A DNA stretch of 14,765 nt, from IMG/VR virus record IMGVR_UViG_2547132272_000009; one strand, written 5' to 3'. The position numbers and the translations under genes were made by a program. Origin of the DNA: a virus (lineage: Duplodnaviria; Heunggongvirae; Uroviricota; Caudoviricetes). Positions 26-14,126 of the stretch are shown here, in pieces; positions within the stretch are counted from its first letter, which is position 1, and each line of letters starts with the position of its first letter. The notes under the pieces were generated by a model. The model searched no databases. It saw only the letters and a program-made list of their open reading frames with translations, and had not been told where the DNA came from.

Positions 26-367
26 TCAAAACATCGTTTCGCCGCGACCTTTATAGTTGCTCACCAGCGAATCAGGTGTTTTTCCGCTACCGACAAAGCG
101 CCCTTTTTCATCCCTTAAACGTCCATCGGTGGGCGCAGCCGGAACTGGCACAGGTGAAGATGGTTTCCTGGGAGCCTGATTGGCTTCTCCGCCCGCAGTT
201 GCCTGCTGCGTGCCACCTCCTGGACCTGTATTTGAAGGTATTTTAAGCGGCGTCCCTGCAGGGCCAATCATCAGCCCATTGCGATACTTTTCAAATATCG
301 CCTCAAGTCGCTTAAGGTGTTCTTCATTAACGTCCAGTGTCAGAACTGGCATCTGATTACCTGACAT
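26..367 (-). CDS. Hypothetical tail-module protein with a Pro/Gly/Ala-rich central region (113 aa)
   Basis: Same frame as the 209-aa ORF and starts 10 nt upstream of the end of the -1 ORF. Central segment GPAGTPLKIPSNTGPGGGTQQATAGGEANQAPRKPSSPVPVPAAP is low-complexity. TGA at 26-28. Confidence 0.45.
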   Translation of the reverse strand: MSGNQMPVLTLDVNEEHLKRLEAIFEKYRNGLMIGPAGTPLKIPSNTGPGGGTQQATAGGEANQAPRKPSSPVPVPAAPTDGRLRDEKGRFVGSGKTPDSLVSNYKGRGETMF

Positions 368-674
368 TCAATACCCCTCCCGGCGTCGTGCATTTACGCA
401 GCTCACGAAACTGAGCTGCTGTTTTTACATTCAGACCGGAATTTGCCCAGATGTCGCTGAATCCGTCTCCGGCTGAGTAGTCGAGGATGTCGCTGATAAC
501 GTGCTCGCCGTCGCGCCAGAACTGGCGACAGGCTTCAATGTCGGCAATGAAGCAATCCATTCCGTAAGACTCAAGGATGAAGTGCGACTGTTCCACATTC
601 CACTGACTACCAGCATCATCTGTTCCGTCTGCTCCGGTGTGTTTATCGACGAGACGCATGTAAAAAAAACGAGT
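357..674 (-). CDS. Putative -1 frame extension of the chaperone (frameshift-fusion segment; track ORF 357..659)
   Basis: The -1 frame is closed by UGA at 675-677 and opens exactly at the slippery run. It encodes an acidic, protein-like 100+ aa segment and ends at 357, tightly overlapping the next gene's start at 367. Confidence 0.4.
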   Translation of the reverse strand, partial: TRFFYMRLVDKHTGADGTDDAGSQWNVEQSHFILESYGMDCFIADIEACRQFWRDGEHVISDILDYSAGDGFSDIWANSGLNVKTAAQFRELRKCTTPGGVLNVR

Positions 675-1060
675 TCACCCGCAACATCATCCAGCTCAAC
701 GATTTCACGCTCCAGCGCCATATCAAGAGGGATTGTGTCGTAACCTTTGCCCTCCACCGGATAAACAAGGTTTGCCAGGCGAATTATTTCGTTCACCAGC
801 GTATTACGAACTCCCTTATCATCGTCCCAGATACCGGAATCACGCGAGATCCGCTCCAGCATCAGAAAAGCAACGCGCGGCCCGGCAACGACGCCAAGAC
901 CTTCGGAGAAAATGGCAGAAAAAGTTTTACTCAGAATGAAGAAATGCTCTTTAAACACCTCTTTGCTGATCGGCGTGGCGTGAATCCAGGCTTTACCTTT
1001 CTCGGTCTGGACAGGAATAATCAGGTTTAAATTTCGCGCGATTTTCATACCAAATCCCAC
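431..1060 (-). CDS. Putative tail assembly chaperone, 0-frame product (209 aa)
   Basis: Sits at the tube-to-tape-measure chaperone position. The first 133 codons look protein-like and end in VFF on the U-run. The 75 codons after the U-run are Ser/Thr-rich and low in complexity, so may not be genuine coding sequence. Confidence 0.5.
   Translation of the reverse strand: MGFGMKIARNLNLIIPVQTEKGKAWIHATPISKEVFKEHFFILSKTFSAIFSEGLGVVAGPRVAFLMLERISRDSGIWDDDKGVRNTLVNEIIRLANLVYPVEGKGYDTIPLDMALEREIVELDDVAGELVFFTCVSSINTPEQTEQMMLVVSGMWNSRTSSLSLTEWIASLPTLKPVASSGATASTLSATSSTTQPETDSATSGQIPV
662..669 (-). other. Candidate recoding site: U UUU UUU slippery heptamer within a U8 run
   Basis: Minus-strand mRNA GGU GAA CUC GUU UUU UUU ACA UGC in the 0 frame. 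A -1 slip would read ...VFF then UAC AUG CGU (Y M R ...) into the 357..659 frame. Confidence 0.4.
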
Positions 1061-1488
1061 ATTTCAGAGTTGATGTAATACGTACCGGTAATGGTGATGG
1101 CCACACCCGGCTCGCCCCCGGCGAAGGTCATATCCTGCACGTTGGTGATCGCCGTGTTATAGATATCGAAGTCACCGAACACCGTGCTGTCGCTATACAC
1201 TTTTGCGTCGCCGATCGTGGCGTTTTTTTCCCATTGCGCCTTGAATTGTTTTCCCAGCGCCTGGCTACGCAGCAGATGAACACGCGCCTGTAAAATCATG
1301 TATGGCTGCGGCGACTGCACGGCTCCCGTCATAGCGGGTAAAAACTCCGTGATATTGCCCTGAAAGGACAATTCGACGCCTTCTTTTGCCAGAAATGAGG
1401 CGGACACATTCAGTTCGGAATGAGAGGTGAATTTAACGCTGGCGCGAACCCGGTTAAGGGTGCCAACGGGGATCATTGGATTAGGCAC
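1045..1488 (-). CDS. Putative tail tube protein (147 aa)
   Basis: Immediately downstream of the sheath-sized gene. GAGGGA Shine-Dalgarno upstream of the ATG at 1486-1488. Size consistent with myophage tube proteins. Confidence 0.45.
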   Translation of the reverse strand: MPNPMIPVGTLNRVRASVKFTSHSELNVSASFLAKEGVELSFQGNITEFLPAMTGAVQSPQPYMILQARVHLLRSQALGKQFKAQWEKNATIGDAKVYSDSTVFGDFDIYNTAITNVQDMTFAGGEPGVAITITGTYYINSEMWDLV

Positions 1489-2837: not shown

Positions 2838-3781
2838 TATTTAACCTCATATTTACAAATAACTTTTTCAATCAACTGCCGGGATATTTCCCGGGCGGTG
2901 CTCTGGTAGTAATTCACGTCAAAATCGACAATTTTTTTCTTCGCCAGAGCGTTGATTTCAACCTGTCCCGACTTTGCGTCCTGAACCACCGGAATATTGG
3001 TTACACCAAACTTTTCCTCCTCCAGCGCCCTGTTCACCACCGAGTCGATAAGATCCAGCGCCATTTTGTTGCTGAATCCGTAAAGCGTCAGGCGAACCGA
3101 ATCCTGGACGAGCTGGAATCGCTCACCACCGAAAACAACGGGAGCCACCTGCAAAGGAATACTGTTGCGAACATCCACCGCGATATACGGAGGGCGAAGG
3201 TTCTGCGGTACCAGGTAAGACGGATACACGGTCGCGGCATCTTTCATTTGCAGCCAGATCGGGATGCTGTTGGATATGATCTGCTCGTCGCTGATATCCT
3301 CCTCGCAGTCGATAATCTGGGAACGCATGGTTGGCAAAATCGCCATGCCGCGATAATGAAAAATACCCGACTGCTGATAGCGGCTCTCCATTCGAGAAAA
3401 AGCGAACTGGACGCCGCCGTACTCACCGAGATAGATCGCGTCGGGATTTTCCACATTAAAATCATCAACCTGCTGAACAGGCGTGAAAATAATGTTGTTC
3501 ACATCCTTCGAGACAGACTCGTCCTGAATCGCAATAACCTGACGATGCAGGCTGCCTTTGATTTTCAGACGAGTTGGTGACTCAATATTCAGGCGACACA
3601 GTTCATCGCAACTGATGATTTCCGCATTAACCCAATAGACAAAGCCATCCAGCGGCAGAACCTGCCGGACATAGAGCCTGAACGTGATTTCCTGGTCTGA
3701 CGAGATGGTTTCAACTGCGGATTTAAGAACGGACGAGAGCTGCGAACTGTGCTGTTCGGCTAATTCCTCAAGACTCGGCAT
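2837..3781 (-). CDS. Hypothetical tail/neck-associated protein (314 aa)
   Basis: ORF immediately upstream of the putative sheath gene. Its TAA overlaps the sheath ATG (TAATG at 2835-2839). No motif recognised. Confidence 0.5.
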   Translation of the reverse strand: MPSLEELAEQHSSQLSSVLKSAVETISSDQEITFRLYVRQVLPLDGFVYWVNAEIISCDELCRLNIESPTRLKIKGSLHRQVIAIQDESVSKDVNNIIFTPVQQVDDFNVENPDAIYLGEYGGVQFAFSRMESRYQQSGIFHYRGMAILPTMRSQIIDCEEDISDEQIISNSIPIWLQMKDAATVYPSYLVPQNLRPPYIAVDVRNSIPLQVAPVVFGGERFQLVQDSVRLTLYGFSNKMALDLIDSVVNRALEEEKFGVTNIPVVQDAKSGQVEINALAKKKIVDFDVNYYQSTAREISRQLIEKVICKYEVK

Positions 3782-12750: not shown

Positions 12751-13002
12751 TTAGTCCTGATTTTTATCCACCCTGAGTAGTTCGCGCAGGGCAAAGGCAT
12801 CCCCTTTTCTGGCAAGCTTAAACAATGCCGCCCGTAGCTCGGCTTCACCTTTCGCTCTGCCCTTACGGATGGACGCATAAAAATTTGTCATTGCTTCCCG
12901 ATTTTCTTTCAGTCGGTTCAGATCAACATCCAGAACGTCAGCTATTTGTTGTGCAGTCATCCGGCACGCTGCCAGAGACTCGACTTTCGAATACGGAATC
13001 AT
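12751..13002 (-). CDS. Small DNA-binding (HTH-like) protein, 83 aa
   Basis: ORF immediately upstream of terS. Segment MTAQQIADVLDVDLNRL looks like a helix-turn-helix. GGGGGTGA Shine-Dalgarno-like sequence 5-10 nt upstream of the ATG at 13000-13002. Overlaps the 3' end of the upstream gene. Confidence 0.5.
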   Translation of the reverse strand: MIPYSKVESLAACRMTAQQIADVLDVDLNRLKENREAMTNFYASIRKGRAKGEAELRAALFKLARKGDAFALRELLRVDKNQD

Positions 13003-13870
13003 TTGTCACCCCCATTGATATGCAGGGTGTCTTCTTCCTGTATTTTTCGTGAAGGATTTTTACTGCAGCATTGTTCCAGGTGACCTGATGGTGAATGCGT
13101 TTATGGCTGGCCCCCATCAGTGCGATTTTCACGCACGACGGCGCATACATGACAGAGTAAAAACTTTTAACGTAGGTACCGGAATCCAGATACAGTTCGG
13201 TCATGCCACCGCTGTTTTTTTGCGTCTGCTTCTGGCCCAACTGGACGGCGCCAACCGTCATAAACAGTTCACCACACCGTCCGAGGTTCGTGTATGTGTT
13301 CACGTCCTCATTAATGCGCCCCATGAATGAGAACGGTCGGTCAACCGAACAGATAAAGCTGTTCATTGCCTTGCGTTTCACCCACGAAGCATGGCCGCCA
13401 TTGTCACCAAGAAAATCCCCGCCCTGCGACATAGCGATGGAAAGCGCAGGAATTGATTCGTAATACGCCAGCATTTCAGAAAGGATCGCATCAAGTTTCC
13501 TTATCGGAAAATAGGCCTGGTCATAGTTGCGATCCACCCGAAACTGAAACTCGTGATAATCATCATCGAGCTGAATGAAGTATTTACACCCGACCTTTTT
13601 TGCCAGGTCAAAACAGGCATTACGGGCGTAAAAAATTGAGCGACGATCACCGAAATTATCGGCTTCGTCAAAACGACTGGCGATATCGGCTTTGGAAAAC
13701 ACCAGCACCTGTTCACCAAATTCTGCTATGTACTGATGCCGGGTTTTATCTTCATCATCAACAACGATAAAAACTTTCCCGGTATAGCCAGCACGACGCA
13801 ACGTCCGGTAAGTCAGAACTTTGTCCGGACGCCCGTGAGTCAGAATAAAGGCGCAAAAATCATCACGCAT
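12938..13870 (-). CDS. Putative GT-A fold glycosyltransferase-like protein (about 310 aa from the ATG at 13868-13870; the track's longer ORF starts at 13891)
   Basis: N-terminal pattern FCAFILTHGRPDK ... KVFIVVDDEDKT and a hydrophobic strand followed by DxD (YFIQLDDDYHEF) resemble the GT2/GT-A nucleotide-sugar-binding region. No obvious transmembrane segment. The ATG at 13870 is preceded by GGAGGAGGAGG and overlaps the end of the upstream reading frame (ATGCGTGATG), suggesting translational coupling. Fold assignment is by eye only. Confidence 0.5.
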   Translation of the reverse strand: MRDDFCAFILTHGRPDKVLTYRTLRRAGYTGKVFIVVDDEDKTRHQYIAEFGEQVLVFSKADIASRFDEADNFGDRRSIFYARNACFDLAKKVGCKYFIQLDDDYHEFQFRVDRNYDQAYFPIRKLDAILSEMLAYYESIPALSIAMSQGGDFLGDNGGHASWVKRKAMNSFICSVDRPFSFMGRINEDVNTYTNLGRCGELFMTVGAVQLGQKQTQKNSGGMTELYLDSGTYVKSFYSVMYAPSCVKIALMGASHKRIHHQVTWNNAAVKILHEKYRKKTPCISMGVTNDSVFESRVSGSVPDDCTTNS

Positions 13871-14126
13871 ATTCCTCCTCCTCCCCGCCATGCATGATCT
13901 CCACCATGCGCTGCGTCATCCGGACAAATCCATTTTCAATAGCCTGCTGATAATCAATGATCACCAGCGCCGACTCCTCAAAAAGGCTCTGAATTTCAGC
14001 GGGGGCGTGAGCGTAATAGTCCGCAATTCTGCTGAAATTAAACACCGTGTGACGTTCTGCCGCGCACAGGAGGAATTTTTCGATATCAGGCTCAAGGGAC
14101 GCCGAACGTATCCGGCTGACCAGCTC
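13863..14126 (-). pseudogene. In-frame continuation of the ParB-like gene beyond the TAG (88 codons, ends GGEEEEYA, TGA at 13863-13865)
   Basis: Same frame as 14127..14657 (14657-14045=612, divisible by 3). Hand translation of 14126..14046 gives ELVSRIRSASLEPDIEKFLLCAAERHTV with no stop, then runs into the track ORF 13863..14045. That ORF only has a GTG start and no Shine-Dalgarno, so it is unlikely to be an independent gene. Whether this is a nonsense mutation, suppressed amber or readthrough cannot be told from sequence. Confidence 0.45.

Follow-up and report, generated by a model that had tools for sequence, protein, structure and literature searches.

The window analysed here is the whole 14,765-nucleotide (nt) stretch of IMG/VR record IMGVR_UViG_2547132272_000009, a prophage region of E. 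coli assigned to the tailed phages (Caudoviricetes). It carries, between its tube and tape-measure genes, an open reading frame (ORF) here called ORF-A, in which a putative programmed -1 frameshift at a U UUU UUU heptamer would fuse the beginning of ORF-A to a second ORF in the -1 frame. Coordinates follow the plus-strand numbering of the window; all genes discussed are on the minus strand. Farther out, on the 5' side of the coding strand, are the capsid, protease, portal and terminase genes (head and packaging). The order sheath, tube, ORF-A and tape-measure/lytic transglycosylase gene is kept in the window and in all relatives examined. The features of the locus are as follows (aa, amino acids).

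2837-1500, minus strand: sheath gene (phrog_205)
1045..1488, minus strand: tube-sized gene, 147 aa (phrog_6566), directly upstream of ORF-A
431..1048, minus strand: ORF-A, 0-frame product, short chaperone-like isoform, 205 aa (phrog_11810, full length)
662..668, minus strand: slippery heptamer U UUU UUU, within a U8 run at 662-669 and followed by A-C
434..661, minus strand: dual-coding overlap, 76 0-frame codons over the -1 frame
357..662, minus strand: -1-frame segment, 101 codons, C-terminal module of the predicted 230-aa transframe product (phrog_14324)
26..367, minus strand: start of the tape-measure/lytic transglycosylase gene (phrog_7694, positions 1-114 of 675)

The two ORFs of the window match phrog_11810 (E 3.9e-85) and phrog_14324 (E 5.2e-62) over the full length of the profiles, and the same two profiles are matched by distant relatives and by natural fusions. 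Both are labelled 'unknown function'. The start of ORF-A overlaps the stop of the tube gene in an AUGA, and the stop of the -1 ORF overlaps the start of the tape-measure gene by 11 nt (AUG at 367). The positions given in an earlier note on this DNA are all correct when read on the minus strand. It gave the 0-frame protein as 209 aa and the fusion as 133 + 100 aa; the junction stands, and the sizes have been revised. ORF-A likely starts at AUG 1048 and not at GUG 1060, because AUG 1048 forms the overlap with the tube stop and because homologues begin with MKI or MRI. From that start the products would be 205 aa and 230 aa (129 + 101).

The slip site is an A8 run on the plus strand at 662-669, which is U8 on the coding strand and reads GUU UUU UUU in the 0 frame, as had been claimed. 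Across it the 0-frame mRNA is GAA CUC GUU UUU UUU ACA UGC, where GAA to ACA are codons 125-130 from AUG 1048. The heptamer consists of the last base of Val127 (GUU) and of Phe128 and Phe129 (both UUU); the U8 of the window is Val GUU plus the heptamer, nothing more. The 0 frame continues for 76 codons after the site and ends at UGA 433-431. The -1 frame reads UGA ACU CGU UUU UUU UAC AUG, with its UGA at 677-675, and the -1 segment spans UAC 662-660 to the stop UAA 359-357. In the window lineage the transframe junction would be ...ELVFF-YMRLV..., and the predicted junction tryptic peptide is EIVELDDVAGELVFFYMR. The AUG directly after the run (U8-AC-AUG) is specific to this lineage. So is the opening of the -1 frame exactly at the run, which the earlier note had described: in relatives the frame opens 6-384 nt upstream. 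The overlap of the two frames, put by the note at about 230 nt, measures ~228 nt. An open -1 frame is improbable by chance given the 0-frame protein (P 0.004-0.03); the reverse test, an open 0 frame given the -1 protein, is uninformative alone (P 0.11-0.39). Runs of U7 are by themselves not enriched in the window (8 matches, 5.9 expected).

The family was searched exhaustively with P0001, a natural fusion of the two ORFs across a T9 run, and 626 clusters at 50% identity were found. Most of these match residues 1-130 only, yet are 186-200 aa long. Relatives at 28-34% identity were found by tblastn in five groups of isolated phages: Klebsiella phages Chronis and RothC/D, Pantoea phage PdC23, the Yersinia vB_YenM phages and Shewanella phage QDWS. 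Eight further metagenomic contigs were recovered through exact-protein look-up. Scans of genome contigs with the fusion protein and with P0130, and of viral contigs with P0137 and P0169, gave no confirmed relatives. No frameshift is annotated in the records of the isolated phages, and the published papers on Chronis, RothC and RothD, like those on the Yersinia phages, say nothing of a frameshift or of a chaperone. Two of the deposited sequences, OK094664.1 (Shewanella phage vB_Sb_QDWS) and OP650936.1 ('Hujiaoplasma phage zrk29-1'), are both 47,902 bp long and gave identical match statistics; they may be one genome deposited under two very different hosts.

The DNA of the site was compared in 14 lineages, the window included, down to ~28% identity. 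Thirteen of them have NNU UUU UUU A-Y at the site. Both Phe codons are UUU in every lineage (28/28), compared with 35% UUU for Phe elsewhere in these loci (P ~1e-14), and the codon before them ends in U in 13/14 (P ~1e-8). The residue before the Phe pair is Cys, Ser, Thr or Ala in eight lineages; in seven of these eight its codon ends in U, so that the run is only U7. The length of the U run thus varies (six in one lineage, seven in seven, eight in five, nine in one) while its phase is constant. The lineage with nine (L075) reads GUU UUU UUU UGC, a T9 run, and still requires a -1 shift. Since the UUU codons and the NNU before them are held in phase, the selected element is the in-phase heptamer. 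In L075 an inserted HNH endonuclease-like gene (L075:2185-2685) separates the chaperone locus from the tape-measure gene, and the -1 ORF stops short of this insertion.

The protein family tells the same story around the site. Thirty sequences aligned at 31-46% identity have no more than five invariant columns, and F128 and F129 are among these; S133, W152, S167 and L168, all past the slip site, are nearly invariant. The Phe pair is present in 135 of 150 representatives. It is followed by T, I or M in 124 of the 135, always with a codon of the form A-[CU]-N, and a Tyr codon (UAY) is therefore kept in the -1 frame. A further 50-69 residues follow the pair in 107 of the 135. The few representatives that cover both parts in a single ORF all join them at FF-Y.

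The -1 frame is open for 98-117 codons from the run and encodes a conserved domain with the consensus FFY..L...YG...F.AD...L...GF...R. Conservation begins at the junction. The +1 frame, checked in six distant loci, meets a stop within 4-25 codons in each. The -1 ORF occupies an otherwise unannotated gap of 57-137 nt before the tape-measure gene. A tape-measure start is annotated in 11 distant loci; the -1 stop is at most 11 nt away from it in 10 of these and, in the exception, Chronis (L063), 77 nt beyond it. A Met codon is absent from the -1 ORF in 7 of 12 distant loci, and the others have at most three. The earlier note had set conservation of the 0-frame C-terminus, in the absence of a conserved -1 ORF, against a frameshift. 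The 0-frame C-terminus is indeed conserved, and the -1 ORF equally so: mean pairwise identity is 0.33 for each of the two alternative C-terminal products (18 lineages).

Substitutions were counted in 48 unique close relatives, which diverge by up to 30% in nucleotide sequence, and show how the shared stretch evolves. Third-position changes per site are 2.30 in the tube gene, 3.22 in ORF-A upstream of the run, 3.38 in the tape-measure gene and 2.29 in the stretch coding only in the -1 frame. Within the overlap they fall to 1.25 for the 0 frame and 1.07 for the -1 frame, lower than at single-coding third positions (Mann-Whitney P 1.6e-12 and 9e-16, respectively). Periodicity follows the 0 frame in the first half of the overlap and the -1 frame in the second. 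The run and the next 12 nt have only three changes over 21 sites. This pattern indicates that both frames are under selection in the ~228-nt overlap.

The 0-frame extension had been called atypical in the earlier note. The distance from the slip site to the 0-frame stop does differ from that of the canonical arrangement; the extension itself is a conserved protein segment, predicted with high confidence to complete a fold. It is conserved over >600 clusters at 50% identity and closes with a Ser/Thr-rich tail that bears an [IV]-P-[ST] motif; among the 150 representatives, a C-terminal P-[S/H/T/R/V] is present in about half of the 0-frame-type proteins. The [IV]-P-[ST] motif of the short isoform may be a docking peptide. 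The 0-frame protein is modelled by AlphaFold2 with a predicted local distance difference test score (pLDDT) of 87.5 and a predicted template modelling score of 0.79. Ten-residue blocks score >=92 from residue 11 to ~170, and residues 171-205, rich in Ser and Thr, are disordered. The Phe pair lies inside a predicted helix (119-135), which is followed by two helices and a strand (138-167). The model of the transframe protein (pLDDT 70.7, based on only 11 sequences) keeps the N-terminal fold and adds a disordered linker at ~138-146 and an all-helical domain at 147-220. The linker is variable and contains Gly and Asp. In these models the frames interleave: ordered, conserved protein in one frame is mostly opposite linker or tail in the other.

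Taken with the recurrence of the in-phase heptamer, the conserved -1 domain and its termination at the tape-measure start strongly support the claim of a programmed -1 shift at U UUU UUU at the chaperone position. It is very likely, on this comparative evidence, that the locus has a genuine, hitherto unannotated programmed -1 frameshift in a tail-assembly gene that a large group of phages with contractile tails share, and the shift is probably ribosomal. We infer that shifting happens and that the ribosome does it; the ratio of the products and their chaperone functions are likewise presumed by analogy.

Translation would begin at AUG 1048, coupled to that of the tube gene, and most ribosomes would read through to give the 205-aa protein. 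With tRNA-Phe on both UUU codons (128 and 129), a minority would move back by one base on U UUU UUU, decode UAC (Tyr) as the following codon and go on in the -1 frame as far as UAA 359-357. The long product would be 230 aa, with residues 1-129 shared, followed by the linker and helical domain. If lambda gpG/gpGT is taken as the model, the N-terminal part common to both forms may bind the tape-measure protein, and the -1 domain may recruit the tube protein. Because no conserved RNA stimulator is detectable, the heptamer's intrinsic slipperiness would hold the ratio of long to short product at a low, fixed value. As the shift would interrupt a predicted helix, with 76 codons still to go to the 0-frame stop, each isoform would have its own conserved C-terminal module.

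Several results weigh against this interpretation. One lineage, L069, has ACC UUU UUU at the site (heptamer C UUU UUU), and three family members (P0206, P0245 and P0262) have Y-F (UAY UUU) in place of F-F and lack the full heptamer. U_UUU_UUU is a much weaker shifter than A_AAA_AAG in E. coli (PMC5009743). A downstream hairpin or pseudoknot, which the earlier note suggested looking for, is not conserved across the window and nine other lineages: folding gave z = +1.9 and +1.2 in the window, and z from -1.95 to +1.3 with unrelated folds in the others. No upstream hairpin abutting the run is conserved across lineages. There is no clear Shine-Dalgarno-like stimulator either; a GGGUGA is present, at a distance of just 6 nt on the 5' side of the heptamer and with variable third positions. 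Thirty members of the family had no Pfam match at E <= 1, NCBIfam gave none, no profile search linked the family to a named chaperone family, and no solved structure matched it significantly. Weak echoes of the fold point the other way: annotated myovirus tail assembly chaperones recur among the low-scoring matches in BFVD. The modest slipperiness of U_UUU_UUU would fit a low ratio such as that of lambda, where long and short forms stand at ~1:30 (PMC5009743). At window positions 669-682 (minus strand) there is a marginal terminator-like element, in which the U8 comes after a 5-bp stem (GCGGG/CUCGU, G-U pairs included); it is not conserved elsewhere.

The same fused protein would arise if RNA polymerase added a U (U8 to U9) and the transcript were then translated in the ordinary way; the products and the biology would be the same, and only the recoding step would differ. 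A genomic T9 does encode exactly the predicted fusion (L003, L004 and P0001), a T9 run occurs in the distant lineage L075, and both the lack of a stimulator and the poor performance of U_UUU_UUU in E. coli sit well with slippage of the polymerase. Vladimirov et al. in 2022 reportedly proposed, to judge by their title alone, a non-ribosomal mechanism for T4-like chaperone genes. Efficient slippage of bacterial RNA polymerase is, however, documented at runs of 9 A/T (PMC5009743), a length of about nine that is not reached where the run is U7 only, as in seven of the 14 lineages, or U6, as in one. It is the phase of the heptamer that is conserved and not the length of the run, which nothing lengthens beyond the held third base, and no nascent-RNA hairpin next to the run is conserved. 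Transcriptional slippage is accordingly unlikely, and a ribosomal shift is favoured because the runs are mostly 7-8 nt and their phase, not their length, is conserved. It is less likely still that the -1 ORF is an independent gene of 100 aa starting internally at AUG 659, with the U run as an S1-binding leader and no fusion made. Such a gene would account for the AUG directly after the run in the window lineage, and some annotations do give a separate gene of 97-100 aa (phrog_14324; P0127). The domain is nonetheless conserved where the -1 ORF is Met-free, in the Chronis, PdC23, Yersinia vB_YenM, QDWS (Shewanella) and L062 lineages. Having no Met, the ORF cannot be initiated independently in these five and needs the upstream ORF for its expression. 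Moreover, conservation of the -1 product starts at the junction (FFY..L), the window has no Shine-Dalgarno sequence at a suitable distance from AUG 659, and independent initiation leaves the in-phase NNU before both Phe codons unexplained.

A last alternative is that T8 is a misreading of T9, or ORF-A a frameshifted pseudogene in a defective prophage. Homopolymers are error-prone, the tape-measure gene is truncated in the window, and L003 and L004 (2 of 58 clean IMG/VR loci) have a T9 that fuses both ORFs in frame. Other evidence speaks against it. The close relatives comprise two phages, E. coli phage Rac-SA53 and 'Actinobacillus phage' pPE4, as well as 59 IMG/VR loci and the prophages of 92 complete E. 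coli genomes. T8 with the 205-codon 0 frame is found in 56 of the 59 IMG/VR loci; a further locus, L058, has several single-base indels. In a database of 5.8 billion proteins the 205-aa form makes up hundreds of clusters, some on up to 1000 or more contigs, whereas there are only four clusters of fused, 226-227-aa proteins (P0001-P0004), on one to six contigs each. Their frames change at four different, scattered positions, and the fused forms therefore look like sporadic indels; in P0001, the T9 form, the junction is exactly as predicted. The earlier note's alternative of a homopolymer error (true U9) is thus rejected: the 205-aa form is present in thousands of contigs, and the fusions shift at four places. 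Both frames are open and conserved over the >600 clusters, and the same arrangement occurs in plaque-forming or inducible isolates (Chronis, PdC23, Yersinia vB_YenM and QDWS). Artefact or decay can be given next to no weight.

Some of these relatives deserve comment in their own right. L003 differs from eight sister loci by a single change, the extra T, and the original frames of L003 and L004 are otherwise intact; their T9, at about position 3380 of the locus, may be a homopolymer error or a natural 'locked-long' variant. PP818812.1 (L001), 'Actinobacillus phage vB_Apl-pPE4', shares 95.5% DNA identity with the E. coli prophage region studied here, and over the ORF-A region it does not differ from IMG/VR locus L012; its attribution to an Actinobacillus host looks doubtful. 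NZ_CP026085.1, labelled E. coli DH5alpha, has a 91%-identical copy of the prophage region, which is unexpected for a laboratory strain of K-12. In the window itself, positions 1-28 differ from every related phage and E. coli prophage, homology ending at position 29. These 28 nt put a stop after codon 113 of the tape-measure gene, the version in relatives being 657-698 aa long. The divergence may mark the junction of a deletion or insertion, or else the edge of a contig or of the assembly. At the other end of the window, a 317-aa ORF (12938-13891, minus strand) adjoins the terminase genes and matches phrog_842, 'beta-glucosyl-HMC-alpha-glucosyltransferase' (E 3e-103), which hints at DNA or surface glycosylation functions in the prophage.

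Among tail-assembly chaperones made by frameshifting, P2 gpE/E+E' is an example from a myovirus. The gpG/gpGT frameshift of lambda (Levin, Hendrix & Casjens 1993; Xu, Hendrix & Duda 2004; as summarised in PMC5009743) resembles the proposed ribosomal shift in ORF-A in many respects. The gene is flanked by those for the major tail (tube) protein and the tape measure; slipping by -1 at a heptamer yields (here, by prediction) a long form in small amounts beside a predominant short form with the same N-terminus; the second ORF lacks a start codon (here, in most lineages) and ends at the tape-measure gene; there is no strong RNA stimulator, and the frameshift is kept despite sequence divergence. Unlike lambda, where the heptamer is G GGA AAG and the site is near the 3' end of G, ORF-A has U UUU UUU in a predicted helix, 76 codons before the 0-frame stop (50-69 in most relatives). 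Of the short form, ~40 structured residues as well as the tail would accordingly be missing from the long form, and ~228 nt are dual-coding. The host phage is a myovirus, and no sequence or profile homology is detectable.

A pair of chaperone forms termed TAC-N and TAC-NC (TAC, tail assembly chaperone), with a conserved GTTTTT motif, has been proposed for Pakpunavirus and Andersonviridae phages (PMC12846349). Contractile tails, a U-rich slippery motif and a -1 ORF routinely mis-annotated as hypothetical or intergenic are common to both systems, and in both the argument is an uninterrupted -1 frame across divergent relatives. The family is a different one (phrog_11810 / phrog_14324), and the site is mid-gene with both arms conserved, whereas there it is near the 3' end of TAC-N. 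The transcriptional slippage sites of Thermus thermophilus dnaX and Shigella mxiE (PMC5009743) also have a homopolymeric A/T run that leads to a trans-frame product, and here too a genomic extra U gives the same fusion. They differ in that efficient slippage is documented at runs of 9; here the runs are mostly 7-8 nt and their position is phase-locked to a ribosomal X XXY YYZ heptamer.

The comparative evidence gives good support to a G/GT-like system that would depart from the canonical one in two ways: the shift occurs in the middle of a fold, and the conserved C-termini are mutually exclusive. Whether the frameshift serves as a switch between two individually selected C-terminal modules on a common 129-residue core is evenly balanced. 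Read so, the short isoform would finish the fold and add a Ser/Thr-rich tail, and the long isoform would substitute the linker and helical domain. If both modules are functional, this would be a design of chaperone isoforms not described for lambda-like G/GT systems; the overlap would also rank with the longer dual-coding stretches to be conserved in a tail module, as it is kept across >600 protein clusters.

The family is found in many phages and prophages of Escherichia, Salmonella, Citrobacter, Klebsiella, Yersinia, Pantoea and Shewanella. Current GenBank and Prokaryotic Genome Annotation Pipeline (PGAP) records give the locus as a 'hypothetical protein' and an unannotated gap; the frameshift would provide a function and a recoding event for two widespread PHROG families of unknown function, and would extend the G/GT paradigm, which bears on prediction tools. 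It would also offer a tractable E. coli prophage system in which to study the role of the part specific to the short form, and how the ratio of the two isoforms can be set by a weak heptamer that has no stimulator.

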